A stretch of DNA of 64,000 bases, taken from an uncultured Chloroflexia bacterium. GTDB lineage: Bacteria > Chloroflexota > Anaerolineae > Anaerolineales > UBA4823. Under the pieces are notes generated by a model. The model was not told where the DNA came from, searched no databases, and saw only the letters and a program-made list of their open reading frames with translations. The DNA is taken from NCBI GenBank assembly GCA_963840255.1, contig CAWIYB010000003.1, positions 193,314 to 257,313 on the forward strand, in the 5' to 3' direction. A program made the position numbers and the translations under genes. Of the stretch, positions 8,029 through 26,012 are shown piece after piece. How positions within the stretch are numbered: the stretch's first letter is position 1; each line of letters starts with the position of its first letter.

Positions 8029-8052
8029 AAATCCATCCACAGAAATCCAACT

Positions 8053-8081: not shown

Positions 8082-8119
8082 TATATGTCTATGTTTCCAT
8101 GCTATAATTTCGGGCGATA

Positions 8120-8195: not shown

Positions 8196-8258
8196 AAAGT
8201 TGTCTTACAATTTGCTTTTAACCCTTGTCAAAATTGATACTATCGTGTATTATTAAAT

Positions 8259-8301
8259 ATGATGAATGTCTGGGTGCCCCCCTCACCCAGGCATTCATCA
8301 T
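8259..8301 (-). terminator. long hairpin downstream of rimO (possibly a bidirectional terminator)
   Basis: ATGATGAATGTCTGGGTG-cccccc-TCACCCAGGCATTCATCAT, an inverted repeat of about 19 bp between the tRNA and the rimO stop codon. Confidence 0.55.
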
Positions 8302-8323
8302 TTAAATCCACCTTGAAGCCCCA

Positions 8324-9661
8324 TTACCGACTCACAACCATCACCCCACTCAGATCGTAGGTCATCGCGCCGTTTATTCGGACGGGTACAAGCTCACCAA
8401 CAGGTGCACTGCCTTCCACGATGACCAACCCATCAATCTCAGGTGCATCCCGGTAGCTACGACCGAGGGATAACCCATCACCCTGTCCTTCGAAGAGCAC
8501 GTCCAGGGTCTTGCCTATATAGCGCTGGTTGCGCTCAAGAGAAATATCCTGCTGAAGTGCCATCAACCTATCGTAGCGCTCTTCCTTGACCTCCGGCGGA
8601 ACCGGGTCTCCTAATGGCTCACTGGCTGTACCCGGTTCGAAGGAGAATTGAAACGTCCCAACCCGGTCAAAGCGGATCTCTTTAACGAAATCCATCAGGG
8701 TCTGGAATTCAGCTTCAGTTTCGCCGGGATAACCGACGATAAAAGTCGTCCGTAGTGCCAGATCCGGCATGGCGATCCGCATTTTTTCCAGGGTGCGGTG
8801 CACCCAATCCATATTGGCAGGTCGCTTCATGCGCTGGAGTGTATCGGGGTGAGCGTGCTGCAGGGGCATATCCAGGTAGTGCAGGATATGCGGGGTGGTT
8901 GCCATCACCTCGATCAGCCGGTCGGTCACATAACCGGGGTAAGCGTACATGATTCGCACCCAATCCAATTGAGGCACAGCCTGTGTAATTTTTTCGAGCA
9001 GGCGGGCGAGACCATCCTTCAATCCGAGATCATAACCATAATCGGTGGTATCCTGAGCAATCAGGTTGATCTCATGCATCCCCATGGCGCCTAATTGGTG
9101 CACCTCATCGACAATGACATCCATCGGCCGGCTGACAGCGGGACCCTTGATGAGCGGAATGGCGCAAAATGCACACGGACGGCGACAGCCATCGGCAATC
9201 TTCACAAATGCGCTTTTCCCTTGAATACCGGCGCGCAGCACGCCATGCTCATCGGTGCCCACTGTAGCAACGTCCGGCAGGTGATAGAGCGGTTTGGGAT
9301 GTTGTCCATGCCGCAAAGCATCTACCACATCGAGGATATCCATCCAGCGTCGCGTCCCGAGAATGCCATCGATCCCATGCACCCGTTGGGCAACTTCAGC
9401 CCCATAGCGTTGAGTTAGGCAACCTGCGGCGATTAATATCTGCCCCGCCTGCTTCTTATCTGCCAGCTCCTGGAGGACCCCGAAGGACTCTTCCTTCGCC
9501 GGACCGATGAAACCGCAAGTGTTTACTATCAACACCCTGGCTTTAGACGGCTCGTCGGTGGACTGATACCCCGCAGAGGCTAAAATTTGAGCCATCGAGG
9601 CTGAATCAACAGTATTCTTGGCACAACCAAGTGAAATCATGTGGAAAGATTTATTCTTCAT
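8324..9661 (-). CDS. rimO: ribosomal protein S12 methylthiotransferase (radical SAM, MiaB/RimO family)
   Basis: N-terminal SLGCAKNTVDS, radical-SAM motif CRRPCAFCAIP, and a C-terminal TRAM-like GRSYRDAPEIDGLV...YDLSG. Confidence 0.8.
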   Translation of the reverse strand: MKNKSFHMISLGCAKNTVDSASMAQILASAGYQSTDEPSKARVLIVNTCGFIGPAKEESFGVLQELADKKQAGQILIAAGCLTQRYGAEVAQRVHGIDGILGTRRWMDILDVVDALRHGQHPKPLYHLPDVATVGTDEHGVLRAGIQGKSAFVKIADGCRRPCAFCAIPLIKGPAVSRPMDVIVDEVHQLGAMGMHEINLIAQDTTDYGYDLGLKDGLARLLEKITQAVPQLDWVRIMYAYPGYVTDRLIEVMATTPHILHYLDMPLQHAHPDTLQRMKRPANMDWVHRTLEKMRIAMPDLALRTTFIVGYPGETEAEFQTLMDFVKEIRFDRVGTFQFSFEPGTASEPLGDPVPPEVKEERYDRLMALQQDISLERNQRYIGKTLDVLFEGQGDGLSLGRSYRDAPEIDGLVIVEGSAPVGELVPVRINGAMTYDLSGVMVVSR

Positions 9662-9683
9662 TTCTATTTCGAGTAGAAATTAA

Positions 9684-11201
9684 TTATGGTCGCGGCGTCG
9701 GTGAAGGCGTGGCGGTTGGACCGTTCAAAGTGCCCGTGGGAGTGGGAGTGATCGTGCCAGTGGGGACGGGGGTATTCGTCGACGGGAAAGCAGGCGTGGC
9801 AGTCTCGACCCCACTAATGGTAAAGATGCGTTCAACCACTTCACCTACTGCTCCCAACTGGCCAAGGTCATCCTGGTTGAAAAAAACCTTGAGGCTGGAG
9901 CCATCCCCAGTCAGCAGCTCGATGCGTTCATTACCGGCAAATGTATATGCACTGCCCGGCGTCACCCTGCCTTCAAACACGGTCTCTCCATCCACTATCA
10001 CACGCATCCAGGCACGCTGGTTAGCGATTATGTTCACTTGAATGGGGGCGTTCTCGAGACCTGGGGTGGAAGCAATTAAGACCGGCGTTGCTGTCTGCTG
10101 CAGAGTCCCGCTAATCGTTATGGAATCAATGACTTCCGTCGCGACAGCTGAAACCGCAATGCCGGGTGTGAGGCCGGGAGTGCCGGTCAAAGCCGCTTCT
10201 GGCGAAGACAGCAAGATTACGGATACGGGAGGCGCAGTTGGCGATGGTTGCTTAGCTGAATTCAGCTTCGAGATACGCAGGGCACCCCAGATGGAAAACC
10301 CCAGCAGGAAAACGATAATGAACCCGCCAACGAATAAATCCATGGAGAATAAACGTTTCAGCTGCGAAGGCCGCGCAGGAAGCCTGCCATCATCTTTTTG
10401 ACTCTGGGAGGTTGTGGAGGGGTTCCTGGCAGCCTGGCGATCGTAAAGATCGGCTTGCAAGCCATCGGCAAAGCGCAGCAAGACGGCTTCGGTATTGAGA
10501 CCTAGGAAAGAAGCGTAATTACTTAGCATGCCCCTTCCCTGGACCGGGGATGGTAAATGGGATATATCCCCAGATTCAAGGGCCTGGATATAGTGCATGC
10601 GGATATGGGTATGCCGCTCGACATCCCCAAGAGATAAGCCCATCAACTCACGCTGTGATTTAAGCGTGCTGCCAAGCTCTGTAAAAATAGCCTCCGAGCT
10701 GGTAGGTGATGCGCTGATTTCATTTGTGATTGAAGGAGAAGCGACCAAAGGCTGGCTTGATGATGCGTCGTTTTCCAGCAGGCGGATGAGCGTAGACGAA
10801 TCCAGCTTTAAATAATCCCCATAGGCGCGTAAAAAACCTCGTAGCTGGGCTGTTGAGGGCAGTGATGCGAACTTATCGGATTCCAAGGCTTCCAGGTAGT
10901 GCAAGCGGATATGCGTCGCTTGAGCTGCCTGGTCCAGACTCAAAGATTGTGATTCACGCCTGCCTGGCGGAGCTGAGTACCAATGGACATCGACTGTATT
11001 ATACAGCAGGCTTAAACGATAACACGGGTGCTGTATGGAGAGGTTGCGCCCATCCAGTACCCGTTTTATGATTATCTGAACTGCAAGATCATTCAGTTTC
11101 GGATTCGGTTTCGATTTCCGCTTCGGATTCGTCGGCAGGTTCAGGCTCGACTTCAACTTCCTCAACCACCTGAACGGCAGCCTTGCCTGGAACAGGGGCA
11201 A
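9684..11201 (-). CDS. RodZ-like protein with two HTH modules, a TM segment and a PT-rich tail
   Basis: Two RodZ-type HTH modules are present (THIRLHYLEALESDKFASLPSTAQLRGFLRAYGDYL and THIRMHYIQALESGDISHLPSPVQGRGMLSNYASFLGL). One TM segment (FVGGFIIVFLLGFSIWGAL) and a DUF4115-like C-terminal part follow. The start is uncertain: the only ATG (11201) overlaps rplI by 113 nt. Confidence 0.7.
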   Translation of the reverse strand: MPLFQARLPFRWLRKLKSSLNLPTNPKRKSKPNPKLNDLAVQIIIKRVLDGRNLSIQHPCYRLSLLYNTVDVHWYSAPPGRRESQSLSLDQAAQATHIRLHYLEALESDKFASLPSTAQLRGFLRAYGDYLKLDSSTLIRLLENDASSSQPLVASPSITNEISASPTSSEAIFTELGSTLKSQRELMGLSLGDVERHTHIRMHYIQALESGDISHLPSPVQGRGMLSNYASFLGLNTEAVLLRFADGLQADLYDRQAARNPSTTSQSQKDDGRLPARPSQLKRLFSMDLFVGGFIIVFLLGFSIWGALRISKLNSAKQPSPTAPPVSVILLSSPEAALTGTPGLTPGIAVSAVATEVIDSITISGTLQQTATPVLIASTPGLENAPIQVNIIANQRAWMRVIVDGETVFEGRVTPGSAYTFAGNERIELLTGDGSSLKVFFNQDDLGQLGAVGEVVERIFTISGVETATPAFPSTNTPVPTGTITPTPTGTLNGPTATPSPTPRP

Positions 11202-11655
11202 CGTATGCCTCGCCTTCGCGGTAAACGATCACATCAATGGTGGGGATGAGATCCACCGTGAGGCGGATATGGACCTTATACTCACCTAACATGCGTAATG
11301 GTTGAGAATCAATCTGGCGGCGGGCAACTTCCACGCCTGATTTTGCCTTCACGGCATCGGCAATCATTTGGGAGGTCACAGACCCGTATAATTTGCCCGT
11401 CTCGGAAGCTTTGGCAGGAAAGACCAGGGTAAGCCCGGCAAGCTGCTTGGCAACAGCGTCCATCTCTTGATTAACGATCGCGCGCTGGACGTTGGCTTTT
11501 TCTTTGATGCGCTCAGACATTTTAAGCGACTCGGCAGTCGCCAAAATTGCCATGCCTTGAGGAAGCAGATAATTACGACCGTAACCGTCTGCAACCCGCT
11601 TTACGTCGCCAGCGCGACCCAATTTATACACATCTTTCAGGAGGAGTACTTTCAT
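11089..11655 (-). CDS. rplI: 50S ribosomal protein L9 with an acidic C-terminal extension
   Basis: MKVLLLKDVYKLGRAGDVKRVADGYGRNYLLPQGMA is a canonical L9 N-terminus. The tail is VEEVEVEPEPADESEAEIETESETE. Confidence 0.9.
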   Translation of the reverse strand: MKVLLLKDVYKLGRAGDVKRVADGYGRNYLLPQGMAILATAESLKMSERIKEKANVQRAIVNQEMDAVAKQLAGLTLVFPAKASETGKLYGSVTSQMIADAVKAKSGVEVARRQIDSQPLRMLGEYKVHIRLTVDLIPTIDVIVYREGEAYVAPVPGKAAVQVVEEVEVEPEPADESEAEIETESETE

Positions 11656-11770: not shown

Positions 11771-12556
11771 ATGCCCAGCCGTTCACGCTCACAGAGGGTT
11801 GAAGCGATCGTCCTGCGCCACACAGATTGGGGTGAGGCAGACCGCCTTCTCTGGTTGTTCACGCGCGAAATTGGGAAAGTGAAGGTGGTGGCAAAAGGAG
11901 TGCGTAAGCCGCGCTCACGAAAAGCCGGACACCTGGAACCATTTACCCGCGTGGATCTGCAGCTGGCACATGGACGGGATTTACTCATCGTGACCCAGGC
12001 TGAGGCGAAAGAGGCGTACCAGTGGCTGCGCGAGGACCTTGTACGCATGGGGTATGCCTCATATATTATCGAATTATTGGACCGGTTCACCTACGAGGAA
12101 GGTGAGAATATCGGTTTGTATCGCCTGTTAAGTGAGACTCTGAGGCGAATAAATGAGGAACCCGATCCGGCGTTCGCGGTACGTTATTACGAGGTCAGGC
12201 TGCTTGACCTGGTTGGTTTTCGCCCGCAGCTGATCCACTGCGTAAATTGTGGAGAGGAAATTCGGGCTGAAGACCAATACTTCTCGTTTGAGAAGGGTGG
12301 GGTGATTTGCCCAAAATGCGGGGCTAAAGAAGCGGGAGTACGCCTTGTGACCATGCCGGCTTTACATATACTCAGGCATTTCCAGAGATCAAATTACGCT
12401 GAAGCACAACGCGCCAGGCTATCAGTAGGGGTAGACCTGGAGCTTGAAAACCTGATGGGGAATTATCTTACCTATCTCCTCGAGCGAGGGTTGAATACAC
12501 CAGAATTCCTGAAACGGGTGCGCAAGTTGGCTGATACTGGGGATGATTTAAGCTAA
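11771..12556 (+). CDS. recO: DNA repair protein RecO
   Basis: VEAIVLRHTDWGEADRLLWLFTREIGKVKVVAKGVRKPRSR OB-fold N-terminus and a zinc motif CVNCG...CPKCG. Confidence 0.9.
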   Translation: MPSRSRSQRVEAIVLRHTDWGEADRLLWLFTREIGKVKVVAKGVRKPRSRKAGHLEPFTRVDLQLAHGRDLLIVTQAEAKEAYQWLREDLVRMGYASYIIELLDRFTYEEGENIGLYRLLSETLRRINEEPDPAFAVRYYEVRLLDLVGFRPQLIHCVNCGEEIRAEDQYFSFEKGGVICPKCGAKEAGVRLVTMPALHILRHFQRSNYAEAQRARLSVGVDLELENLMGNYLTYLLERGLNTPEFLKRVRKLADTGDDLS

Positions 12557-12700
12557 CCTTCCAATATAGAGCTTCACAACAATCGTTGTGTACCGTACAT
12601 GTGAGGTTGTGATGCAATCATGTGAGGGTGGGTTCTCTATATATCTTTCTTTTTTGTGGAGCTATACCTGTAGATTTCTGCTTGATATTTTTACATAAAA

Positions 12701-12740
12701 CACTTGACTTAGAGTCAACTCCAAGTGATACACTATAAAT
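12701..12740 (+). promoter_or_regulatory. candidate MerR-type promoter/operator
   Basis: TTGACT (12704-12709), a 19-nt spacer, then TACACT. The spacer holds the dyad TTGACTtagAGTCAA, nested within CACTTG...CAAGTG. It lies directly upstream of the MerR gene. Confidence 0.45.
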
Positions 12741-12753
12741 AAGAGGTGAATAT

Positions 12754-13158
12754 ATGAAGATCGCGGAAGTAAGTGAACGATATTCTATTTCGTCAGATAC
12801 GCTGCGTTATTATGAGCGGATTGGTTTAATCCCACCGGTAAATCGCAATGGAAGCGGTATCAGAGATTATATCGATACTGATGTGAAGCGGGTTGAATTT
12901 ATCAAGTGCATGAGGAGCGTGGGGTTGCCCATTGAAGTGCTGATTGAATATGTCAGATTGGTTCAACAAGGTGACGCCACCATCGAAGCCAGAAAAGATA
13001 TTTTAAAGGATCAGCGAGACTTGCTCGCGGCTAAAATGAAAGAAATGCAAAAAACTTTAGACTTGTTGGATTATAAGATAAACGTATATGAACACACGGT
13101 ACTGGAAAAAGAGAAAGAAATAATTCATACTGATGATCAAGCCTTAGAAATTATCTAA
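12754..13158 (+). CDS. MerR family transcriptional regulator
   Basis: MKIAEVSERYSISSDTLRYYERIGLIPPVNRNGSGIRDY winged-HTH region followed by a coiled-coil. Confidence 0.9.
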   Translation: MKIAEVSERYSISSDTLRYYERIGLIPPVNRNGSGIRDYIDTDVKRVEFIKCMRSVGLPIEVLIEYVRLVQQGDATIEARKDILKDQRDLLAAKMKEMQKTLDLLDYKINVYEHTVLEKEKEIIHTDDQALEII

Positions 13159-13166
13159 TAAAATAA

Positions 13167-14183
<1,017 letters not shown>

Positions 14184-14211
14184 GCAAGCCACTGTATAAG
14201 GAATTTTGAAA

Positions 14212-14599
14212 ATGGCAACTTGGACGAACGACGAGCTCAACAAGCTCGGAAGTGCAGAAGAAATGGAGCTCACATCTCTCCGTGGTGATGGCACGTGGCG
14301 AAAGCCGGTGACGATTTGGGTCAGTCCGCTACGGTGATGATCTTTACGTCCGCTCAGTAAACGGTCGCACCGGCGCCTGGTTCCGTGGCACACAGGTGCG
14401 TCACGAAGGCCATATCCATGCTGGTGGCGTTGACAAAGATGTCACCTTCGTGGACGCCGACCCAGGTATTAACAACCAGATTGACGAAGCTTACCGCACA
14501 AAGTACCGCCGCTATGGGCCGAGTATTGTCAACACAATCATTACTCCGGAAGCACGCTCCTCAACAATCAAACTAGTGCCGTGTGCAACCAACGCTTAA
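14212..14599 (+). pseudogene. DUF2255-like gene interrupted by a +1 frameshift near 14333
   Basis: Frame 1 reads MATWTNDELNKLGSAEEMELTSLRGDGTWRKPVTIWVSPLR and stops at TGA 14335-14337. The next frame continues GDDLYVRSVNGRTGAWFRGTQVRHEGHIHAGGVDKDVTFVDAD...IKLVPCATNA. The two pieces together look like one small conserved protein. Confidence 0.6.
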
Positions 14600-14649
14600 T
14601 CAATTTTATTAGTGAGATCTCGCACCCATGCAACTAAAAGGAGAAGGCC

Positions 14650-15633
14650 ATGGAATATGTACGATTAGGTTCAACCGGGATGAAAGTCTCACGCATCTGC
14701 CTCGGTTGCATGGGGTTTGGGGATGCGGAGCGGTGGGTTCACAAATGGGTTCTCACCGAGGAAAATAGCCGGCCGATCATTAAGAAAGCCCTCGAGCTGG
14801 GGATCAACTTCTTCGATACAGCCAACGTTTATTCCATTGGAAAGAGTGAGGAGATCCTCGGACGCGCTTTGAAGGATTTCGCCAATCGGGACCAGGTCGT
14901 CATTGCCACCAAGGTACGCGGTAAAATGCACGACGGACCGAATGGCGAAGGTCTGTCGCGCAAGGCGATCCTAAGCGAGATCGACAAAAGCCTGAAGCGG
15001 CTTGAGGTGGATTATGTCGACCTTTACCAGATCCATCGCTGGGATTACGAAACTCCAATTGAGGAGACGATGGAAGCGCTACATGACGTGGTGAAGGCCG
15101 GCAAGGTCCGTTACATCGGAGCTTCTGCCATGTTCGCCTGGCAGTTCCAGAAAGCGCTGTATGTTGCTGAGAAGCATGGGTGGACCCGCTTCGTCTCGAT
15201 GCAGGATCATCTGAACCTCATCTACCGTGAAGAGGAACGTGAGATGCTGCCACTTTGCCGCGAGGAGAAGATCGGTGTGATCCCGTATAGTCCACTCGCA
15301 TCGGGAAGATTGACGCGTGACTGGTCATCGGAAAGCACTCTTCGTTCCGAAACCGATCAAATCGCGAAAAGCAAATACGATGCGACAGCCGAAACGGATC
15401 GACGAGTGGTGGTGCGGGTCGCGGAGATTGCAGAAAAGTATGGGGTTCCGCGCGTGCATATCGCACTCGCCTGGTTGTTACAGAAAGAGCCTGTGACCGC
15501 GCCCATCATTGGGGCAACGAAGATCACCCATTTGGAAGATGCCGTCGGCGCTCTGTCCGTTAAACTGACGCAGGAAGATGTGGCATACCTGGAAGAACCT
15601 TATGTTCCGCATCACATCGTTGGTCATCAATAA
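14650..15633 (+). CDS. aldo/keto reductase (paralog 2)
   Basis: MEYVRLGSTGMKVSRICLGCM, FFDTANVYS and DLYQIHRWD motifs. Confidence 0.9.
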   Translation: MEYVRLGSTGMKVSRICLGCMGFGDAERWVHKWVLTEENSRPIIKKALELGINFFDTANVYSIGKSEEILGRALKDFANRDQVVIATKVRGKMHDGPNGEGLSRKAILSEIDKSLKRLEVDYVDLYQIHRWDYETPIEETMEALHDVVKAGKVRYIGASAMFAWQFQKALYVAEKHGWTRFVSMQDHLNLIYREEEREMLPLCREEKIGVIPYSPLASGRLTRDWSSESTLRSETDQIAKSKYDATAETDRRVVVRVAEIAEKYGVPRVHIALAWLLQKEPVTAPIIGATKITHLEDAVGALSVKLTQEDVAYLEEPYVPHHIVGHQ

Positions 15634-15659
15634 AAAGGATCAGGAATCAGGAGAAAGCA

Positions 15660-16637
15660 ATGGAGTTTGTTAGGTTTGGATCAACCGGTATGAAAGTATC
15701 GCGCATCTGCCTGGGCTGCATGAGCTACGGAGGGTCAACTGAGCGCTGGCCATGGGCGTTGGATGAAAAAAACAGCCTGCCGTTCATCAAACAAGCGCTG
15801 GAATTGGGGATCAATTTTTTCGATACCGCTAATGTTTACTCTAATGGGCTGAGCGAACATGTGGTTGGTAAAGCACTGCGTGAGTATGCTTCCCGCGAAG
15901 AGGTGGTGATCGCCACCAAGGTGTATTTCGATATAGGTCCTGGACCCAACGATCGCGGCCTCTCCCGAAAACATATCCTAAGCTCGATCGATGCCAGCCT
16001 CAAACGGCTGGGGACGGATTACGTCGATCTGTACCAAATCCACCGCTGGGATTATGAAACCCCGATTGAGGAGACTCTGGAAGCCCTGAATGACGTAGTA
16101 AGGGCTGGAAAAACCCGCTACATCGGTGCCTCATCCATGTATGCCTGGCAGTTTGCCAAAGCCCTTTACATCTCGGAGTTGCATGGTTGGGCGCGTTTCG
16201 TTTCCATGCAGCCCCATTACAACCTGATTTACCGGGAGGAGGAACGCGAAATGCTCCCCCTCTGCAACGATCAGAAGGTCGCCGTTATTCCCTGGGCACC
16301 GCTGGCCAAAGGGAGATTGGCGCGTAAACCATCGAATGAACAGGATGAATCATATCGTGCCCAGACGGATGCCATTGGTAAACGTTTGTATAATGATGGA
16401 GACTTAACCATCGCACAAGCGGTCAGTGATGTGGCAGAAGCCCGTAAAGTGCCCATGGCTCAGGTAGCCCTGGCCTGGATGCTCTCTAAACCGGTGATCA
16501 CCGCCCCAATCATTGGCGCTACCAAGCCTCATCATCTGGACGATGCTGTTGCTGCCATCTCTGTGCAGCTCTCTCCAGATGAAATCCGTTATTTGGAACA
16601 AGCTTATCAACCTCATCCAATACTCGGTTATGCGTAA
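15660..16637 (+). CDS. aldo/keto reductase (paralog 3)
   Basis: MEFVRFGSTGMKVSRICLGCM. Colinear with the preceding paralog along its whole length. Confidence 0.9.
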   Translation: MEFVRFGSTGMKVSRICLGCMSYGGSTERWPWALDEKNSLPFIKQALELGINFFDTANVYSNGLSEHVVGKALREYASREEVVIATKVYFDIGPGPNDRGLSRKHILSSIDASLKRLGTDYVDLYQIHRWDYETPIEETLEALNDVVRAGKTRYIGASSMYAWQFAKALYISELHGWARFVSMQPHYNLIYREEEREMLPLCNDQKVAVIPWAPLAKGRLARKPSNEQDESYRAQTDAIGKRLYNDGDLTIAQAVSDVAEARKVPMAQVALAWMLSKPVITAPIIGATKPHHLDDAVAAISVQLSPDEIRYLEQAYQPHPILGYA

Positions 16638-17154
16638 TTAGCAAAACCAAGCCGCGCTTCTACAACGGAACGTGCGTCCTGGTTTCTATAACTGTGATCA
16701 GGGCACCCAAATTGGTTGAAGGTGAAACGCAGAATGATATGATAGTTTTTAACTAGAATTGAGCAAAAGTAGTTTTTGAATGCAATATTGCATGAGGGTA
16801 TAGGTTCTCCGGTTTTTATGCATACACCGGTAATATAAAAATCCATTTCCTCTCCTAATGACAACTCTTGTCTGCGAATTTGCTTGCCTCAGACTTATGT
16901 CACTTTCATCCTATCTAATTTGTGCTAAATTACACTATTTTGTGCATCCTGGCACAAGTATGCTATAGATGAAACCTGAGGAGAAATCGGGATCCATGCG
17001 AGGAAAGTTGCATAGTTTCGCCCATTGTGTCGCTTTATTGTAATTAAAGATTGCTAAGCGACGATTTTGCATTATTGTACAGGTAACAATTTGTGTCCGG
17101 ATTATCAGGTGCCCTTTTTATCGAAGTGACACATTGTTCGAGGAGAAACACCGG

Positions 17155-19179
17155 ATGAGACCAACCAGTAGAGGCAGCCCCAAGATCGGTGTGTATATAT
17201 GCCATTGTGGCACCAACATTGCCGGCATGGTGGATGTGGAAGCAGTCACCAACCATGCAGCTGCATTGGATAACGTGTTGGTTGCCCGCCATTACACCTA
17301 TATGTGTTCAGACCCAGGCCAGGCTCTTATTAAGGATGATATCCGCAGTGAGGGCCTGAATCGTATCGTGGTGGCTTCTTGCTCACCGTTGATGCATGAG
17401 ACCACATTCCGCAGGGCATGTGCCGAGGCAGGGCTCAACCCATTCTTGTTCCAAATGACCAATATCAGGGAGCACTGCTCGTGGGTGTCGGAAGACCCAG
17501 CCGGTGCGACGCAAAAAGCCATGGCGCTGGTATCTGCCGCGGTGAACAGGGTGCAGTACCAGGCGCCACTCGAGGCTCGCCAGGTGGATATGAAACAGTC
17601 TGCCGTGGTGGTGGGGGCAGGGATCGCGGGGATTGAGGCCGCCCTGCGACTGGCAGATGCGGGCAAACACGTCTACCTGGTAGAGCGGCAGCCCAGCATC
17701 GGCGGGCACATGGCGCAGCTGTACAAGACCTTCCCAACGTTAGACTGCGCCGCCTGAATTCTCACTCCCAAGATGGTGTCCGTTGGACGCCACGAAAACA
17801 TCACCCTGCTGAGCTACAGTGAAGTCGAATCAGTCTCCGGGTACGTGGGCAATTTTACCGTGCGGGTGCGCCGTAAACCACGCTATGTTGATGAAGACTC
17901 ATGTACTGGTTGTGGAACCTGCGTTGAAAAATGCCCGTGGAAAAAGATCCCATCAGAGTTTGACCTGGGGTTGGGGAACCGGGCTGCAATCTACTTCCCC
18001 TTTGCGCAGGCAGTGCCACGCGTGCCTGTGATCGATACCCAAAATTGTGCCTACTTCCAAAAGGGCAAATGCCGGGCATGTGAAAAATTCTGCCTGACCG
18101 GGTCGATCAATTTCGAGCAGAAGGAAGAGTTGCTCGATATCGATGTAGGGGCGATCGTCCTGGCAACGGGGTTCAAGGATTTTGATGCCCGCCGCATCCA
18201 ACAGTATGGCTATGGCGAGCTAGAAAACGTCGTGACCAGCATGGAGCTGGAACGGTTGATTAATACCGGTGGACCGACGATCGGTGAGGTGCGGCTCAAA
18301 GACGGCCGTAAACCGGAAAGTGTCGCCATCGTGCACTGCGTTGGCAGCCGCAATAAAGACTACCACGAATACTGTTCACGGGTGTGCTGTATGTATTCGC
18401 TCAAGCTGGCACAGCTGGTTCGCGACTATGTGGGTGCAGAAGTGCATGAGTATTATCGCGACATGCGCGCTTTCGGCAAGGGCTATGAAGCTTTCTTCGA
18501 GCGCGTGGAAAGAGCGGGGGTCCATTTCGCCCGTTTTGATCAGGAAATGGCGGACGGAGGCCTGCAAATCAGCAAGCACAACGGACAATTAAAAATATCC
18601 ACAACGGATGTATACACCGGTCAGCTGTCCGAGCTGCTGGTGGATATGGTTGTATTGAGCACCGGGGTTGAGCCCCAGTCAGATGCCGCCCACGTGGCAC
18701 AAACTTTCAGCATCAGCCGGGGTCCGGATGGATTCTTCCTGGAGAAGCATCCCAAGCTGGCACCGGTGGAAACAACCACAGATGGAGTATACCTGGCAGG
18801 CGCCTGCCAGAGCCCGAAAGACATCCCCGACAGTGTGGCGCAAGGCGGGGCGGCTGCCTCGGCAGCACTTTCTTTAATGGATGCCGGGCACGTCACCCTG
18901 GAACCGTTCACTACCTATATTGACCAGTCGAAATGCGGGGGCTGCCGCACTTGTGAAGGGTTGTGCCCATATCATGCCATCGAGATGGTTGTCCTCGATG
19001 GACGAATGGTGGCTTATGTTAATGAGGTGTTGTGTAAAGGGTGCGGAGCGTGCGCGGCGGCTTGCCCTGCCCAGGCAGCCATCCAGAATGGCTTTACCCA
19101 GGACCAAATCCTGGCTGAAATAGATGGAATCCTATCGGTTGCGAGTTTATCCGTAATGCCTCAACAGGAGGTGGTATGA
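17155..19179 (+). CDS. hdrA: HdrA-like flavoprotein with an in-frame TGA (17755-17757), a probable selenocysteine codon
   Basis: Track ORFs 17134..17757 and 17773..19179 are in the same frame, separated only by the TGA plus 5 sense codons. The joined sequence reads [34 protein letters not shown], where non-Sec HdrA proteins have Cys. Other signatures are the N-terminal VYICHCGTNIAG, the FAD fold VVVGAGIAGIEAAL and C-terminal 2x[4Fe-4S] (CGGCRTCEGLCP, CKGCGACAAACP). Start at 17155 follows GAGGAG. Confidence 0.8.
17774..17792 (+). promoter_or_regulatory. candidate bacterial SECIS hairpin for hdrA copy 1
   Basis: UGGUGUCC-GUU-GGACGCCA, an 8-bp stem that includes one G-U pair. It starts 17 nt after the UGA and is identical in sequence in the paralog. 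Confidence 0.5.
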
Positions 19180-22100
19180 ACCTCTCCAAGATAAAGACGG
19201 GAGTCTACATCTGCCACTGCGGGACAAACATCGCCGGAAAAGTGGATGTTAAAGCCGTAGTGGAATTTGCCCAGACGCTTGATGGAGTCGTGCTGGCACG
19301 CGATTACACTTACATGTGTTCAGACCCAGGTCAGGATTTGATCAAGCAGGATATTCGTGAACAGGGACTGAACCGGGTGGTGGTAGCTTCTTGTACGCCC
19401 CTGATGCACGAACCGACTTTCCGCAGGGCATGCCGGGAAGGGGGATTGAACCCGTTCTTCTTCCAGATGGCAAATATCCGCGAGCATTGCTCGTGGGTTG
19501 TAGATGACCCCGGGATGGCAACAGATAAAGCCAAGCACATGGTCAGCGCAGCGGTCAGCCGAGTTCACCACCACCGCCCCCTGAACATGCGCTCAGTGGA
19601 TATGGACCAAAGTGCGCTGGTGGTGGGTGGGGGCATCGCCGGGATTGAAGCTGCCCTTCGCCTGGCAGATGCCGGCAAGAAGGTATACATGGTGGAGCGT
19701 GAGCCAAATATCGGTGGGCACATGGCTCAACTTTATAAGACATTTCCCACTCTAGACTGTGCAGCCTGAATACTTACACCGAAAATGGTGTCCGTTGGAC
19801 GCCACGAAAACATCAGCCTGCTGAGCTACAGTGAAGTTGAAAATATTTCCGGGTACGTGGGCAACTACCAGGTGCGGGTGCGCCGAAAGGCACGCTTTGT
19901 GGATGAAAGCCAATGCACCGGCTGTGGGAAGTGCGCTGACGTCTGCCCAGTGGATGTGATAAACACTTTTGACAAAGGGTTGAGCACCCGTAAAGCCACC
20001 TACCGTAATTCAGCCCAGGCAGTGCCCGGCGCGTTCGTGATCGAGAAACGCGGCATCGCACCCTGCCGGGCTGCCTGCCCCACCGACCAGCGCGCCCAGG
20101 GATACATTGCCCTGATCAAACAAAAGCGCTACGCGGATGCTTATTGGGCCATCCGGCGGGAGCATCCATTCCCTTCGGTGTGCGGGCGGGTATGCAACCG
20201 GCGCTGTGAGGAGCAATGCAGCCGGGGCTTGTATGACGAACCGGTAAGTATCATGAAGCTGAAGTGGTTCGTCGCCGATTGGGCATATGAACACCGGGAT
20301 GAGCTGCCCAACATGCGCGATAAGTCATTGGTGGGCACGCCGTTCTCCCACGACCCAACTCCAACGGGCAAGAAAGTCGCCATCATCGGTGCAGGACCGG
20401 CGGGAATGACGGCAGCCTTGGACCTGGTGCGCATCGGTCACCAGGCAACGGTATTTGATTCACTACCCATCGCGGGCGGGATGATGCGGGTGGGTATCCC
20501 ACCGCACCGCCTGCCGTACGACCGCCTGGATTGGGAAATCCAGCAAATTGTGGATGAAGGCGTTGAGATGAAGTTAAGCACGCGGGTGTACGACATCCCC
20601 GGCTTGTTTACCAAAGGCTATAACGCCGTGGTCATCGCAACCGGCGCCCACAGTGCCTGGAAGCTGAACATCCCCGGCACCGAGCACCCCGATAACTGGC
20701 TGAGCCTGGATTTACTTCGCAGGGCGTGCCTGGGGGAGAAAATTGACCTGAGTGGGCGCGACATTGCCGTGATCGGGGCGGGGGATGTCGCCCTTGATGC
20801 AGCACGAGTATCCGTCAGGCTGGGAAGCCCTAAGGTAAAAATAGTGTGCCGCGGTATGCGTGCCTCATTCAATGAGCTCGACGAAGCAAATAAGGAAGGG
20901 GTGGAAATCATCCGCAACCGGGTGTTCAAGGAAGTGGTCATCCGGGAGAATAAAATTATTGGCATCCGCTGCGTGGAAGCCAAGGTGGGGGCGATCGTCA
21001 ATGGTAAACGTCAGGTGGAGGAGATTCCCGGCACCGACCATGTGATCCCATGTGACCTGGTGATCTGGGCAGTCGGGCAGCAGCCAGACTTCAGCTTCTT
21101 ACCAGAAGGCTCGCACATCCGCAAGCTCAGCTCCATGGGACTCGAGACGGATGATGAGATGATGACCAGCATGCCGGGAGTATTTGTCGCGGGTGATGTA
21201 CGCCGGGGAACCACCTTCTTTGTGGTGGACGCAATCGGCGAAGGTCACCACGTGGCAAGGTGCATCGACCGATTCCTGCGTGGACCAGAAGGGATTCAGG
21301 AACCACCCAGGCTACCCACGGCCACCTTTACGAAAGACGAAGTGGGTAAATTGATGGAGACCGGTTGGGCGGCGGAGAACCCACGGGCTAAAACTCGCAC
21401 CATCCCAGCAGAAGAACGAGTGAACAATTTTAAGGAAGTCGACCTGACGCTAAGCGAAGAAGAGGCACTTGCTGAAGCGGAGCGGTGTTTACGGTGCGGC
21501 ATTTGTTCGGAATGCCTTGAATGCCTGTCAGCGTGCGAGCGCGGGGCGATTGACCATGACATGAAAGACAGCATCCTTGACTTGAAGGTAGGTACGATCG
21601 TCCTGGCAACCGGTTTCAAGGATTTTGATCCATCACGGATCCCCGAGCTGGGCTACGGTCAATTGGAAAATGTGCTCACCTCGATGGAATTCGAGCGCTT
21701 GATCAATGCCAGCGGTCCCACCAGTGGCAAGGTGATGCTTAAAAATGGCGAGGCACCAACAAAGGTCGCTATTGTGCATTGCGTTGGCAGCCGGGACGAT
21801 AAATACAATGAATACTGCTCGCGAGCGTGCTGCATGTACTCGCTTAAACTGGCTCAGCTGGTGCACGATTATATGGGTGCCGAAGTACACGAAATCTACA
21901 GAGATATGCGCACATTCGGTAAAGATTATGAAGAGTTTTATAACCGCACACGCAGCAAAGGGGTTAATTTCTACCACGGGCGGGTGAAAAGCATCAAAGC
22001 GCAGGACGGGCAGCTGGTGGTCAAATGGGACGAGAGCTTCTTCAACCAGCCTGACCACATCGAGGTGGATATGGTTATCCTTTCCACCGGTTTCGAAGCC

Positions 22101-22586
22101 CAGGCGGATGCCGCCAAAGTGGCGAGCATGTTCGGAGTCAGCCGCAGTCCTGATGGGTTCTTCCTTGAGAAGCACCCCAAGCTGGCACCGGTGGAGACCT
22201 CGACGGAGGGCATTTATATCGCCGGGGCCTGCCAAAGCCCCAAGGATATCCCTGATAGTGTAGCCCAAGCCGGGGGTGCAGCCGCAGCAGCCCTATCCCT
22301 GCTCGACCAGGGGACGATTGCACTTGACCCGTCGGTGGCTTCGGTGAACCTGCTGCGCTGCGCAGGCTGCGGCTTATGTGTCAATGCCTGCCCGTACAGC
22401 GCCATCGAGTTGAAGGAGAGTGTAGCTTCGGTGAATACCTACCTGTGTAAAGGCTGCGGCACCTGCGCCTCAACCTGTCGTGACAAAGCCATCACCTTGA
22501 TCCATTTCGATGACTCACAAATCGTCAACGAGATGATCGGCGCGCTGGCTTTTGAACCGGTTGTTCCCGGGATCCTCAATCAATAG
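19176..22586 (+). CDS. HdrA-like flavoprotein with an in-frame TGA (19767-19769) and an inserted GltD/NfnB-like NAD(P)H-FAD module
   Basis: Track ORFs 19176..19769 and 19785..22586 share a frame, and the junction reads TLDCAA-U-ILTPKMVSVGRHENI. An insertion (about 20055-21480) carries GRVCNRRCEEQC, KKVAIIGAGPAGMTAALDL, RDIAVIGAGDVALDAARV and PGVFVAGDV, resembling the glutamate synthase small subunit. The start overlaps the upstream stop codon (ATGA). Confidence 0.8.
19786..19804 (+). promoter_or_regulatory. candidate bacterial SECIS hairpin for hdrA copy 2
   Basis: The same UGGUGUCC-GUU-GGACGCCA hairpin, also 17 nt after the UGA. Confidence 0.5.
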
Positions 22587-22596
22587 GAGGTGGTGC

Positions 22597-24015
22597 ATGG
22601 CATTTGAACCCAAGATCATCGCCTATCTTTGCACCTGGTGCAGTTACACCGGGGCTGATACAGCAGGCATCGCCCGGTTGAAGTCTCCGGCTAATATTCG
22701 CGATATCCGCGTACCATGTTCTGGGAGGGTCTCCCCTGAGATCATCATGCGCACCTTTGAGCAGGGGGCAGATGGTGTGTTGGTGTTGGGCTGCCACATC
22801 GGCGAGTGCCACTACAATACGGGCAACCACCGGGCAGCCAAGCGCCTGCCTGTTTTACAGGCACTACTGGCTTACGCAGGCCTGGAACCGGAAAGAGTGC
22901 GGTTGGATTGGGTGTCGGCCTCAGAGGGAGAACGTTATTCACGCATCGCCATAGATTTCACCGAGACGGTGCGTGCCCTCGGACCGATCCACTGGAAGGT
23001 GGCCGAGCGAGGGGCACACTTTGTGTGGGAACGCGAGCCGATCAGCCACCGTTATTCGGCTTTCAGTGACGAACAACCAAAGCATGCCGTTTATCACACC
23101 TCCCTCCATGATGAGCAAACCAGCACACTTCAGGCGGCAGCCCGAGAATTACTGACCAATAAACTGGTGGATAGTGTAATCGGGTTCGAAGTTGGTCCCA
23201 GAGGGCGCACACGACCGGCATTCATCCACCAGGCGGAAAATGTGGAGCGACTGGTATGGAACCAGGACTGTACGCATAATCTATCAGCTTATTTAAGTAA
23301 GAAATTAGGCTGGGGCACGGATGGCGGCAAGAAAAAGCAGCCGGACAAGCTGCCGAAGGCGGCAGTAGTGGTGAAACCCTGCGACAGCCGTTCGATCAAT
23401 GTGCTGCTGGCAGAAAACCGCTTCCTGCGTGACCAGGTATACATCATCGGTATGGCGTGTGACGGCATCAGGCAGGGGGCCGGATTCGGCAATGATAAAA
23501 GCGGACCCATCCAAACGCGCTGTGCGGCGTGTAATGTACGCACTCCGGTCATCTATGACACACTGATTGGAGACCCAGAGGCGACTTACCGTGAAATCCC
23601 ACCCGAACATATCTATCCGGGGATAGACCACCTGGAGGCCCTGACACCGGTGGAAAGGATGAACTTTTGGCTCAGCCAGTTCGACCGCTGCATCCGCTGT
23701 TACGCCTGCCGGCAGGCATGCCCGATGTGCGATTGTCCGATCTGCTTGTACGAGCGGGACGATTCGCTGTGGGTGGGGATGGGGATCGACGTCGACGAGA
23801 AGAGGGCATTCCATCTGGGAAGGGCATACCACCTGGCAGGGCGCTGCGTGGGCTGCAATGAGTGCGAACGTGCCTGTCCAATGGATCTACCTCTCAGCCT
23901 GATCCACCGCAAGATGGCCCAGGAGATGGACACCATATTTGGTTTCCGGGCTGGTATGGCGGCAGTACCGCCTCCTTTCGTCACTATCCTGGGCGGAGAG
24001 GAGAACCTCCCATGA
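22597..24015 (+). CDS. MvhD/FlpD-like domain fused to an Fe-S protein
   Basis: The N-terminus KIIAYLCTWCSYTGADTAG...IRVPCSGRV...GADGVLVLGCHIGECHY is MvhD-like. The C-terminus has VVVKPCDSR plus CIRCYACRQACPMCDC and CVGCNECERACP. The ATG at 22597 follows AGGAGG. Confidence 0.8.
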   Translation: MAFEPKIIAYLCTWCSYTGADTAGIARLKSPANIRDIRVPCSGRVSPEIIMRTFEQGADGVLVLGCHIGECHYNTGNHRAAKRLPVLQALLAYAGLEPERVRLDWVSASEGERYSRIAIDFTETVRALGPIHWKVAERGAHFVWEREPISHRYSAFSDEQPKHAVYHTSLHDEQTSTLQAAARELLTNKLVDSVIGFEVGPRGRTRPAFIHQAENVERLVWNQDCTHNLSAYLSKKLGWGTDGGKKKQPDKLPKAAVVVKPCDSRSINVLLAENRFLRDQVYIIGMACDGIRQGAGFGNDKSGPIQTRCAACNVRTPVIYDTLIGDPEATYREIPPEHIYPGIDHLEALTPVERMNFWLSQFDRCIRCYACRQACPMCDCPICLYERDDSLWVGMGIDVDEKRAFHLGRAYHLAGRCVGCNECERACPMDLPLSLIHRKMAQEMDTIFGFRAGMAAVPPPFVTILGGEENLP

Positions 24016-25013
24016 ACTACCTTACCCAACGGGAGTTAGCCACCTGGCTCGACCACCTGGCGACGGAACAAACCCTGATTGCCCCGCTTAATATTGCCGG
24101 TAACATCCTTTACCGACCGGTGCCAGATACCCGGGAAGTAGTATGGGATTTTGTGCGATCTTTTATGTCAGTCAAGGATGCTTTCTTCCCTCCCACCGAG
24201 CGATTGATGCTGATCGAAAAGATGAATGGACAGGTGAAGCTGACTGAAACCCTGCCGGAGGGTGAGGCGATCATCTTCGGAGTGCGCCCTTGCGATGCAC
24301 GCGGACTGCTCACACTGGATGCGTTGTTCATCGAGAATGAACCCGTGGACCCGTATTATGCCCGCCGGAGAGAAAACACCACCCTGATTGGACTGACTTG
24401 CCAATCGGTGGGCGCCAGCTGTTTTTGCACCAATGTGGGGGGAGCACCAGATGACCCCACCGGGATGGATATCATGCTAACCGCTGCAAATGGTGGTTTT
24501 GTGGCTGAGATCATCACTGAGAAAGGCGAGAAGATCAGCAAAAAGTTCCCTGTATTCGATGGGTTATCTGAGATCCGTCCGCACCCCACGCATGCCAGGA
24601 AACGTGAGTTATCGGTGCCTGCAAAGGAAGTGTGGCCTGCCAGGTTTAATGATGACTATTGGGCCGAGTTAGCTGAACGCTGCCTCAGCTGCCGCATCTG
24701 CGCCTATGTATGCCCCAGCTGCCGCTGTTTCGACGTGCGCGATGAAGCCCTTCCGGGTGGGAATGGACAGAACCAGTCCGAGCGGATCCGCTGTTGGGAT
24801 TCATGCAACGGCATCCCCTACCGGCGGGTAGCAGGCGGTCACAACCCACGCTTTATGAAGAACCAACGGCTGCGCAACCGCTTCTTCTGCAAATTCTATT
24901 ATTTCCCATTGCACTACGGACCCGTCTCGTGCACAGGCTGTGGGCGCTGCATCGATGCCTGCCCGGTGAATGTGGATATCACCGAGGTACTGGTGCACGT
25001 GAGCAGGAGGTAA
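24012..25013 (+). CDS. Fe-S subunit resembling AsrA / sulfhydrogenase beta
   Basis: IFGVRPCDARGL, CLSCRICAYVCPSCRCF and CTGCGRCIDACP. The start overlaps the upstream stop codon (ATGA). Confidence 0.7.
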   Translation: MNYLTQRELATWLDHLATEQTLIAPLNIAGNILYRPVPDTREVVWDFVRSFMSVKDAFFPPTERLMLIEKMNGQVKLTETLPEGEAIIFGVRPCDARGLLTLDALFIENEPVDPYYARRRENTTLIGLTCQSVGASCFCTNVGGAPDDPTGMDIMLTAANGGFVAEIITEKGEKISKKFPVFDGLSEIRPHPTHARKRELSVPAKEVWPARFNDDYWAELAERCLSCRICAYVCPSCRCFDVRDEALPGGNGQNQSERIRCWDSCNGIPYRRVAGGHNPRFMKNQRLRNRFFCKFYYFPLHYGPVSCTGCGRCIDACPVNVDITEVLVHVSRR

Positions 25014-25016
25014 GCG

Positions 25017-25868
25017 ATGAGCGATAAACTGGTTAACAACCCCATGTTGCCTTACCTGGGTAAACTGGTGGAGGTGAAAGACATCGCCACCGAGATCAAG
25101 CTGTTTCGGATTGAAATGCTCAACGGGGGTTGCGAAGCCTTCCATGATTACAAGCCCGGGCAGTTTGCCTTCGTGTCAGCCTTTGGAGTGGGCGAGGCAC
25201 CCTTCGGGATTGCCAACATCCCCAATAATGGTGATGCAACCCTCGATTTCGCCATCAACCGCCTGGGCTCAGTGACCACTGACCTGCATGAGCTGGGAGT
25301 GGGTGACATGGTGGGGGTGCGCGGTCCGATGGGTAACGGCTTCCCGATGGACAAGTTCAAGGGGAAAAACCTGGTAGTGATTGGTGGAGGCATAGGTGGT
25401 GCACCTTTACGTCCGGTAATCCAAACGGTGATGGCTAACCGGGGCGATTATGGAGACTTCCTCATCCTATGGGCAGCGCGCAACCCATCCCTATTGGTGT
25501 TCACCGATGAATACGACCAGTGGCGGGCAACTCCTAACTCCGAGCTACACCTGACGGTTGACCAGGCTGACAGCACCTGGACTGAGGGCGTGGGGTTGAT
25601 CACCCAGCTGCTGGAGAAGGTGGCTCCCTCGCCGCGCAACACGATCACCATTACCTGCGGACCGCCGATCATGATCCACTTCGTCAACCGGGTGCTGGTG
25701 GAAAAGCTGAACTTCAAACCTGAGCAGAATTACGTCACATTGGAAGCGCGCATGCACTGTGGGATCGGCAAGTGCGGGCGCTGCAACCTGGGCACCAAGC
25801 TGGTGTGCGTGGATGGACCGGTGTTCACCATGGCGGAAGTGGGAGCGTTACTGGAAAGCTTCCTGTAG
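25017..25868 (+). CDS. FAD/NAD(P)-binding oxidoreductase with a C-terminal [2Fe-2S] motif (AsrB/HydG/PyrK-like)
   Basis: KPGQFAFVS, GPMGNGF, LVVIGGGIGGAPLRP and C-terminal CGIGKCGRC. Confidence 0.8.
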   Translation: MSDKLVNNPMLPYLGKLVEVKDIATEIKLFRIEMLNGGCEAFHDYKPGQFAFVSAFGVGEAPFGIANIPNNGDATLDFAINRLGSVTTDLHELGVGDMVGVRGPMGNGFPMDKFKGKNLVVIGGGIGGAPLRPVIQTVMANRGDYGDFLILWAARNPSLLVFTDEYDQWRATPNSELHLTVDQADSTWTEGVGLITQLLEKVAPSPRNTITITCGPPIMIHFVNRVLVEKLNFKPEQNYVTLEARMHCGIGKCGRCNLGTKLVCVDGPVFTMAEVGALLESFL

Positions 25869-26012
25869 ATATAGATATACTTTCATAACTGGCTTGTCTT
25901 AAGTTATTAGGACCTGCCAGTTTTATTTTTAACAACACAGGCAAGAAAACCAGCGATAAGACGAAAATCTGGGGTAGAATTCTCCGCAACCTGAGTCTGA
26001 ATGGAGCCGCGC

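Follow-up and report, generated by a model that had tools for sequence, protein, structure and literature searches.

A conserved five-gene operon of Anaerolineae that joins HdrA, an HdrA–GltD hybrid and a Flx-like arm without HdrBC

Organization of the locus

We analysed a 64,000-nucleotide (nt) stretch of contig CAWIYB010000003.1 (assembly GCA_963840255.1, positions 193,314 to 257,313) from an uncultured Chloroflexia bacterium of the Anaerolineales, hereafter the window. Five genes on its + strand (17155–25868) have as predicted products two selenocysteine (Sec)-containing HdrA proteins, one of them split by an NfnB/GltD-like module, an iron–sulfur (Fe-S) protein fused to MvhD, and a pair of subunits related to those of sulfhydrogenase. 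The cluster is a real operon conserved in Anaerolineae. Its genes and associated features are listed below in window positions.

17155–19179, + strand: G1, hdrA (Sec), 674 residues; in-frame TGA at 17755–17757
19176–22586, + strand: G2, hdrL / type III hdrA (Sec), 1136 residues; in-frame TGA at 19767–19769
20049–21485, + strand: inserted NfnB/GltD/NfnL-like module of G2, residues 292–770 (479 residues)
22597–24015, + strand: G3, MvhD–FdhB/ElpB/HydB-like Fe-S fusion, 472 residues; FlxD–FlxC equivalent
24012–25013, + strand: G4, sulfhydrogenase-β/AsrA-like Fe-S subunit, 333 residues; FlxB equivalent
25017–25868, + strand: G5, sulfhydrogenase-γ/AsrB/PyrK-like subunit for flavin adenine dinucleotide (FAD), [2Fe-2S] and NAD(P)H, 283 residues; FlxA equivalent
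16638–17154, + strand: AT-rich non-coding leader/promoter region, 517 nt
16920–16957, no strand: two neighbouring Rex/CRP-type palindromes, exact at 16940–16957 and with one mismatch at 16920–16937
17774–17792, + strand: selenocysteine insertion sequence (SECIS)-type hairpin of G1, 8-bp stem and GUU loop
19786–19804, + strand: SECIS-type hairpin of G2, nucleotide-identical to that of G1
25887–25932, + strand: terminator-like hairpin and U-run, immediately 3′ of the G5 stop codon

The original prediction described five packed, partly ATGA-overlapping genes preceded by about 500 nt of AT-rich non-coding DNA, and both points hold. ATGA overlaps join two of the four junctions (G1/G2 and G3/G4), and the other two spacers, 10 nt between G2 and G3 and 3 nt between G4 and G5, carry GGAGG-type ribosome-binding sites. 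GC content is 0.42 at 16500–16999 against about 0.55 in the genes. No open reading frame (ORF) with a family match lies in the leader, and a sigma-70-like sequence within it (16716–16743) is a consensus match only. The hairpin that follows G5 (−18.6 kcal/mol, z-score −3.0) runs into UUUUAUUUUU. With its own AT-rich leader and its own terminator, the transcription unit lies entirely within the window. The flanking genes are of other chemistry, with three aldo/keto reductases on the 5′ side and TfoX_N, EamA and alanine racemase genes on the 3′ side.

Conservation of the five-gene unit

An exact look-up of G4 in an assembly collection gave no record, and relatives were reached by homology. More than 120 protein clusters were recovered at identities of 67% and up; every one carries the insert, and those with names come from Anaerolineales/Chloroflexi metagenome-assembled genomes (MAGs). 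We also surveyed loci by a scan of GTDB species, in which the best 80 of 587 pattern-positive stretches (of which not all can be taken as HdrL) were inspected. The 79 independent loci, nearly all from Anaerolineae/Chloroflexota MAGs, are designated here by L numbers; each complete match covers the whole of HdrL, and several matches are stopped by a contig end. An assembly artefact as the source of the HdrA–GltD fusion is rejected, since the same fusion, for which a search in other genomes had been proposed, is carried by all these protein clusters and loci. The best relatives are 91–94% identical, and the flanks of L001/L006 are syntenic with the window.

Gene order was followed in 50 loci of the window clade, with insert identity of at least 57% and at least 4.7 kb of downstream sequence. 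G3–G4–G5 stand immediately after hdrL in 46 of them; two of the remaining four have G3–G4–G5 after extra hdrA/hdrL copies, and two have an orphan hdrL. A plain hdrA precedes hdrL almost everywhere. The flanks vary between lineages, which indicates that the five genes move as a unit.

Tandem duplication was also seen. Extra copies, arranged hdrA–hdrL–hdrL or hdrL–hdrA–hdrL, precede the MvhD/Flx-like genes in L005, L008, L011, L042, L047 and L083, each extra copy with its own Sec codon and hairpin. The orphan hdrL genes, without a nearby redox partner, are those of L045 and L046; in the latter, hdrL (8004–11387) is flanked by GntR regulators, a radical-SAM/SPASM protein, a GH2 glycosidase and an ABC transporter.

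G1 and G2 as selenocysteine-containing HdrA proteins

G1 aligns over its full length with methanogen HdrA (8rvu_a, 4e-214; 5odc_A, 3e-213), at about 55–60% identity to the solved proteins (5ODC, 7BKB and 8RVU). Its parts are complete: an N-terminal cluster domain, a GxGxxG FAD site, CVGSR..CSRxCCMY, and the inserted and C-terminal ferredoxin domains. G2 matches HdrA structures in two stretches that flank the insert (residues 5–291 and about 770–1124), and the HdrA parts of G1 and G2 are 63% identical. The domain set of the HdrA superfamily, comprising a thioredoxin-reductase-like FAD domain, the HA4 motif CxGSRDx6-8CSxxCC and a C terminus with 2×[4Fe-4S], is present, and the HA4 motif (CVGSR...CSRxCCMY) is intact in G1 and G2 alike. 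The lysine that follows CCMY(S/A)(L/M) also aligns in both proteins and is invariant (K891) in the homologue alignment; this is the FAD-N5 lysine, Lys409 in 5ODC, where it is hydrogen-bonded to N5 of FAD (PMC6405883). Scores against the NCBIfam models of methanogen CoB–CoM HdrA fall under the equivalog cut-offs (models NF041778 and NF040770; for G1, 615.6 against 1400 and 819.7 against 1100 bits; G2 is similar), which marks a superfamily member and not the methanogenic enzyme. Two Sec-containing HdrA copies had been predicted from the ORFs, and they are recovered here as one full-length HdrA and one HdrA split by an insert.

Both reading frames are interrupted by TGA, and in G1 Sec replaces the second Cys of the motif DCS(M/I)CIL. 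Starting 19 nt past the UGA, G1 and G2 have the same hairpin, with an 8-bp stem and a GUU loop. In related loci the hairpin AUGGUGUCCGUNGGACGCCAC follows 124 of 124 TGA sites, with compensatory stem changes in L008, L009, L031 and L044, and is found at none of nine sites with TGC (Cys), although the encoded peptide is nearly unchanged. Full-length Cys versions of both proteins also exist (P0011 and P0024; L002 and L004). We rejected a pseudogene or an assembly artefact as the explanation for the split ORFs because the TGAs occupy the Sec/Cys position, the hairpin is conserved and full-length Cys homologues occur. Judged by these sequence features, G1 and G2 are genuine selenoprotein genes, not pseudogenes. 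Genes for Sec insertion were not seen in the window, although no test was aimed at them. The natural Cys variants, for example those of L002 and L004, make it practical to express the proteins heterologously with no need for selenocysteine machinery.

An NfnB/GltD-like module in the ferredoxin domain of G2

The insertion in G2 had been read as a GltD/NfnB-like, two-Rossmann module of about 475 residues (20055–21480) in the place of the short ferredoxin-like insert of the first copy. Profile and structure–sequence matches agree with this, refine its length to 479 residues and place it inside the inserted ferredoxin domain. Its GltD-like nature is confirmed by profile search, with Pfam Fer4_20 and Pyr_redox_2 (G2 residues 295–690) and a match to NCBIfam PRK12771 at 1e-135, alongside matches to NfnB (4ylf_B, 3e-53) and GltD (2vdc_G, 4e-38). 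The nearest solved relatives are the NfnL-like domains in the large subunits of Bfu-type transhydrogenases: Caldicellulosiruptor NfnA (9bov_A, 2.8e-79), archaeal NfnA (9n5u_A) and Sporomusa StnC (8oh5_C).

The insert separates the two Cys motifs of the HdrA inserted ferredoxin domain, CTGCGKCADVCP and CxxCxxCxxxC (C777–C787), and bears motifs for two [4Fe-4S] sites, an FAD site (GAGPAG) and a second Rossmann site for NAD(P)H (GAGDVA). G2 is colinear with NfnA(Bfu)/StnC through the segment NNFKEV..EA.RCL.CG, which stands at the C-terminal end of the insert (window 21390–21500, residues ~744–775). Since this segment is N-terminal in NfnB/GltD, the G2 module is circularly permuted relative to those proteins. 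The sequence after the insert reads RC771LRC774GIC777SEC780LEC783LSAC787, in which C771 and C774 correspond to the ligands of NfnB RCLQC, and C777–C787 form the second motif of the HdrA inserted ferredoxin domain. Across 12 homologues the cluster cysteines (C247/250/253/257, C297/301 and C336/340/344/348), the cysteines after the insert and both glycine motifs are invariant. These cysteine motifs imply four [4Fe-4S] clusters in series, which would lead from the FAD of the insert to the HdrA part of the protein.

The canonical NADPH signature YRR(T/S)xxEMPA gives way to VCRGMRASF in the window; most members of its clade have CLEPRGEMPGF instead, and a second, HdrBC-linked HdrL clade (described below) retains YRRT..MPA. 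The second-nucleotide site keeps GxGxxA and an Arg, the YRR motif is lost, and members of the clade vary.

In NfnABC the NfnL-like module serves simply for entry and does not bifurcate: it takes electrons from NADPH to FAD and into an Fe-S chain (PMC11829005). The operon might on that precedent encode a non-bifurcating NAD(P)H:ferredoxin oxidoreductase or electron wire, its HdrA flavins acting as two-electron/one-electron converters and its nucleotide modules as alternative NADH and NADPH inputs; the orphan hdrL genes that lack a partner (L045 and L046) and the divergence of nucleotide-specificity motifs among clades would suit such a role. We consider this unlikely. Ferredoxin reduction by NAD(P)H alone is endergonic, both paralogs retain all the features of bifurcating HdrA, and the strictly conserved, elaborate five-subunit architecture argues for coupling.

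G3–G5, a predicted NAD(P)H dehydrogenase arm of sulfhydrogenase-βγ/Flx type ending in MvhD

Residues 1–131 of G3 are an MvhD/FlpD [2Fe-2S] domain (1e-45 to 8rvu_F; about 50% identity to methanogen MvhD). They are followed by an Fe-S region with 2×[4Fe-4S] (residues ~165–472) whose C terminus resembles FdhB, and the C-terminal 340 residues are distantly related to G4. An AlphaFold 2 model of G3, mediocre in quality (pLDDT 66, pTM 0.48) and used for family-level Foldseek matches only, matched MvhD (1e-12), ElpB/FdhB (4e-10), the FrhB family and sulfhydrogenase I β (2e-3). G4 contains Pfam Fer4_22 and matches Pyrococcus furiosus sulfhydrogenase I β (9nez_B, 3.4e-43), while G5 contains NAD_binding_1 and DHODB_Fe-S_bind and matches the γ subunit of the same enzyme (9nez_C, 2.5e-49). 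The MvhD–Fe-S fusion and the AsrA/HydB- and AsrB/HydG-like subunits first recognized from the ORFs are all confirmed, the latter two as homologues that score below the equivalog cut-offs. So far under are these NCBIfam scores (164 against 750 for HydB, 175 against 650 for HydG, 156 against 323 for AsrA and 183 against 289 for AsrB; the ShyB match is also below) that G4 and G5 are to be read as family-level relatives and not as sulfhydrogenase or Asr enzymes.

These matches nevertheless bring up the possibility of a hydrogenase- or sulfite/sulfur-reductase-linked module, with G4 and G5 as its βγ diaphorase and the catalytic subunit elsewhere. The best solved matches of both proteins are sulfhydrogenase I β and γ, NCBIfam also returns AsrA and AsrB, and a [NiFe]-hydrogenase is encoded at 57568–60363. 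We regard such a link as highly improbable, given the low equivalog scores and an arm that terminates in MvhD, the HdrA adaptor. Moreover, no hydrogenase α–δ or AsrC gene adjoins the module in any locus examined, and the window hydrogenase is 32 kb off and has its own small subunit with NiFe_hyd_SSU_C.

We did not favour a further candidate, in which G5 would be an NfnA-like small subunit docked on the insert as in an embedded NfnAB. G5 resembles sulfhydrogenase γ far more than NfnA/NfnS (2.5e-49 against 1e-14; 1.6e-14 for the NfnA-type 5jca_S), it is paired with the sulfhydrogenase-β-like G4, and HdrL proteins of the HdrBC-linked clade carry the insert with no accompanying G5-like gene.

HdrB and HdrC in the window and in related loci

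The claim that no CCG-domain HdrB or HdrC is present in the window is supported by two scans: the CCG motif is absent from every plausible ORF of the 64 kb, and a Pfam scan of about 47 window ORFs, with a handful of smaller ORFs outside it, gave no CCG or HdrB/C match. When all loci were scanned for the CCG motif and with Pfam, hdrC–hdrB was found within ±8 kb of a window-clade module only in L017. In this locus (73% identity) hdrC and hdrB, the latter with two CCG domains, occupy 11900–13299 on the same strand, 725 nt downstream of the G5 homologue.

The second HdrL clade, at 39–51% identity (L063, L065, L067, L070, L071, L074, L075, L079, L080 and L082), has hdrC–hdrB or hdrD beside hdrL in eight of the eight loci with flanking sequence, mostly directly upstream and in L079 downstream of hdrL–mvhD; L080 and L082 start within hdrL, so that the position of hdrCB is not visible there. 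mvhD follows hdrL in all ten. The order hdrC–hdrB–hdrL–mvhD occurs in L063 (418–8301) and also in L067, L070, L071, L074 and L075, and in L063 mvhG–mvhA ([NiFe] hydrogenase) comes next, which gives the classical Mvh–Hdr layout with HdrL replacing HdrA. Because HdrBC-linked operons of the same class keep hdrCB adjacent, its absence at the five-gene module is informative. Both HdrA copies were also placed on a phylogeny, as had been proposed. In a neighbour-joining tree of the HdrA cores (632 columns, no support values) the tandem HdrA and tandem HdrL proteins group as sisters whose internal branching runs in parallel, with the HdrBC-linked HdrL clade outside both. This arrangement is consistent with long co-inheritance of the two as a pair.

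The main rival to a self-contained complex is a Flx–Hdr-type enzyme that depends on HdrBC (or HdrD) encoded elsewhere in the genome, so that NAD(P)H oxidised by the Flx-like arm would be bifurcated at the flavins of HdrA/HdrL to ferredoxin, or through the GltD module to NAD(P)+, and to a disulfide or DsrC-like acceptor that HdrBC would reduce. We hold this to be a serious, if tentative, possibility. The HA4 motif and the FAD-N5 lysine are kept in both paralogs, hdrC and hdrB lie downstream on the same strand in L017, the other HdrL clade stands next to hdrCB or hdrD wherever flanks are visible, and FlxABCD partners HdrABC or HdrD in sulfate reducers (PMC5947623). Set against these points, a single locus among about 50 informative ones has hdrCB inside an 8-kb distance, 725 nt off and not overlapping, and the 64-kb window has yielded no CCG protein. 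We also know of no candidate disulfide substrate in Anaerolineae.

A putative Rex-like operator

The exact palindrome TTGTGCATCCTGGCACAA and its one-mismatch copy follow the pattern TTGTGC-N6-GCACAA. Of 47 loci, the window included, 20 carry TTGTG-N8-CACAA half-sites with variable spacers ahead of hdrA, and 25 carry the core TGTG-N8-CACA, for which the background is 0.017 per 400 nt. The site lies at about −215 in close relatives; in more distant ones, Rex boxes that are almost perfect, TTGTGAAAAATGTCACAA for example, are found at −70 to −125 or at −363. The Rex operator consensus is TTGTGAAW4TTCACAA (PMC2883068); the palindrome has the half-sites and spacing of a TTGTGAAnnnnTTCACAA-type Rex operator, a geometry that CRP-type sites share. 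Across the window, palindromes with one mismatch are not above chance (3 found, 2.1 expected). The case is one of positional conservation across loci, and half-sites that are kept while spacers vary are the pattern expected of a bound operator. This suggests that the operon may be under NADH/NAD+ control through a putative Rex-like operator. No rex gene was seen in the window.

A proposed scheme for electron transfer

The original reading of the cluster as a bifurcating complex of the Flox–Hdr or Mvh–Hdr kind remains the best that homology offers. In Elp–Hdr, electrons pass from the donor arm via HA1/HA2 to the [2Fe-2S] cluster of MvhD and on to the partner's FAD′; the high-potential electron then leaves via HA4′ to HdrC, and ferredoxin or polyferredoxin receives the low-potential electron by way of HA3, HA5′ and HA6′ in the inserted ferredoxin domain (PMC12350162). 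By analogy with the Mvh-, Fdh- and Elp-Hdr complexes, G1 and G2 would form the dimeric core of a soluble multi-flavin Fe-S complex. NAD(P)H would be oxidised at G5, and its electrons would travel through G4 and the Fe-S domain of G3 to the N-terminal clusters of HdrA, then to the MvhD [2Fe-2S] and the bifurcating FAD of the partner. The inserted ferredoxin domain of G1 would trade low-potential electrons with ferredoxin, whereas in G2 this ferredoxin port would be hard-wired to a second NAD(P)(H) site. The HA4/HdrC port would have no occupant encoded in the operon. The net reaction we deem likeliest would be a reversible bifurcation or confurcation between ferredoxin and the two NAD(P)(H) sites with no thiol or disulfide substrate. 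Such an enzyme could serve as an Nfn/Stn-like transhydrogenase or in NADH-driven redox balancing, induced at high NADH/NAD+.

We weigh as our preferred reading, with a probability of roughly 0.4, that the operon encodes a self-contained, Rex-controlled, flavin-based bifurcating or confurcating complex that would link two NAD(P)(H) sites with ferredoxin. In its favour, the five genes form a compact, conserved set that hdrCB hardly ever accompanies, and the nearest solved relatives of the insert are the NADPH-entry ports of NfnABC/Stn transhydrogenases. Several points weigh against it. The HA4 motif, which in HdrABC passes the high-potential electron to HdrC, is intact in G1 and G2, so that a docked HdrC-like partner stays plausible, and L017 has hdrC–hdrB 0.7 kb downstream of the module. 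The hdrA and hdrCB genes are unlinked in several methanogens, which makes absence from an operon weak evidence. The GltD module sits on the low-potential branch of a canonical HdrA and does not map simply onto an Nfn-type scheme. Finally, with the canonical NADPH signature lost, the two nucleotide sites may share the same specificity.

A bolder proposal would make the module a third, HdrA-based class of bifurcating transhydrogenase or NAD(P)H:ferredoxin oxidoreductase, besides NfnAB/NfnSL and Stn/NfnABC. It would be an HdrA/HdrL heterodimer that bifurcates between ferredoxin and pyridine nucleotides without thiol or disulfide substrate, widespread in Anaerolineae, in which the NfnL-like module functionally replaces HdrBC. 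We think this rather unlikely.

HdrA is one of the few known flavin-based bifurcating modules, and there is active interest in the ways it is coupled to new donors and acceptors. Here a single operon unites an HdrA whose ferredoxin port is predicted to be free, an HdrA in which that port would be hard-wired to NAD(P)(H), and a second NAD(P)H arm. Should the self-contained complex work without HdrBC, the HdrA core could bifurcate free of disulfide chemistry, and a missing enzyme for balancing NADH, NADPH and ferredoxin would be supplied for these fermenters. Anaerolineae, abundant but poorly cultured, are ubiquitous in sediments, soils and digesters. With Cys variants at hand for expression, the module is a good target for biochemistry.

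Neighbouring genes

Three tandem aldo/keto-reductase paralogs (window 13167–16637) stand between recO and the operon. We considered them as operon partners and rejected them, as they are missing in the otherwise syntenic L001, where recO directly precedes the operon. The trio looks specific to this lineage, an insertion that has nothing to do with the Hdr module. Further upstream, window 1946–8028 contains Rieske, cytochrome b and cytochrome b–c fusion genes on the − strand, as well as genes for the A and B subunits of succinate dehydrogenase/fumarate reductase; the organism probably respires besides fermenting.

Downstream, window 42634–49267 resembles a defence island, with a DUF2290 and helicase pair (PADLOC PDLC02998 and PDLC03002; helicase 1e-228), a PDC-S32 candidate (45989–46912) and an SNase+LTD protein (PADLOC C3a212). 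Several ORFs near it (39545–41673 and 49401–52092) had no family match. The [NiFe]-hydrogenase locus (57568–60925), 32 kb from the operon, comprises small and large subunits and a HycI-type maturation protease, and is not of the Mvh type.

Comparison with known systems

The HdrL fusion was described in 2009 in Desulfobacterium autotrophicum (PMC2702500), and HdrABC/HdrL was detected in the proteome of Syntrophobacter fumaroxidans (PMC5947623). Fusions of this kind in ANME-1 and Bathyarchaeota were described in 2022 and 2025: HdrA9–11 of ANME-1 have a 500-residue NfnB-like insertion in the ferredoxin domain (PMC9012536), and the class 'type III HdrA' dates from 2025 (PMC12054007). G2 resembles these proteins in its module of about 500 residues, GltD/NfnB-like and set in the inserted ferredoxin domain, in being a selenoprotein, as they often are, and in having mvhD next to it (G3 begins 10 nt after G2). 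The known genes, however, sit with hdrABC, dsr, mvhADG, formate-dehydrogenase-like genes or other hdrA, whereas hdrL is here preceded by a plain hdrA and followed by the MvhD–Fe-S fusion and the sulfhydrogenase-βγ-like pair, with no hdrBC. The NADPH signature also differs from that of the HdrBC-linked HdrL clade.

FlxABCD–HdrABC of Desulfovibrio vulgaris and other anaerobes is an NADH dehydrogenase/heterodisulfide reductase (PMC5947623). The likeness to it, at the level of domain equivalents (G5, G4 and G3), lies in the FAD/NAD(P) [2Fe-2S] subunit, the two related Fe-S subunits and the MvhD adaptor to HdrA. FlxABCD is reportedly composed of FlxA (FAD/NAD(P)H, [2Fe-2S]), the Fe-S proteins FlxB and FlxC, and the MvhD-like FlxD. 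The module departs from it in its reversed gene order, the fusion of MvhD with a FlxC-like part, the lack of HdrBC or HdrD and the nucleotide module in the second HdrA. Known Flx/Flox modules that feed HdrA work with HdrABC or HdrD, and S. fumaroxidans has a variant with two hdrA genes (PMC5947623).

With the Mvh-, Fdh- and Elp-HdrABC complexes (5ODC, 7BKB and 8RVU) the module shares HdrA, MvhD and, in the C-terminal part of G3, the FdhB/ElpB fold. Its predicted donor is an NAD(P)H flavoprotein and not H2, formate or F420H2; HdrBC and the metabolism of CoM-S-S-CoB are absent, and its core would be a heteromer of HdrA and HdrL. As for NfnABC/Stn and NfnAB (NfnSL), the insert is colinear with the NADPH-entry domain of NfnA/StnC and also matches NfnB/NfnL, and the predicted substrates, two pyridine nucleotides and ferredoxin, would be the same. 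The bifurcating core, in contrast, would be an HdrA flavin instead of the Bfu flavobicluster or the b-FAD of NfnB, G5 is much nearer to sulfhydrogenase γ than to the NfnA/NfnS small subunit, and the YRR motif is not kept. With P. furiosus sulfhydrogenase I (9NEZ) and AsrAB the module shares homologues of β/AsrA (G4) and γ/AsrB (G5), but the module is without a hydrogenase or siroheme catalytic subunit and the pair is coupled to MvhD and HdrA.

We found no description of the five-gene module of Anaerolineae in the open-access literature, where absence is not proof. That the hybrid had already been described and that the five-gene set is common in Anaerolineae lowers the novelty of the original prediction, not its correctness. 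The single parts are known; what is distinctive here is their fixed combination, an uncharacterised five-gene set of HdrA, HdrL and a Flx-like arm without HdrBC.

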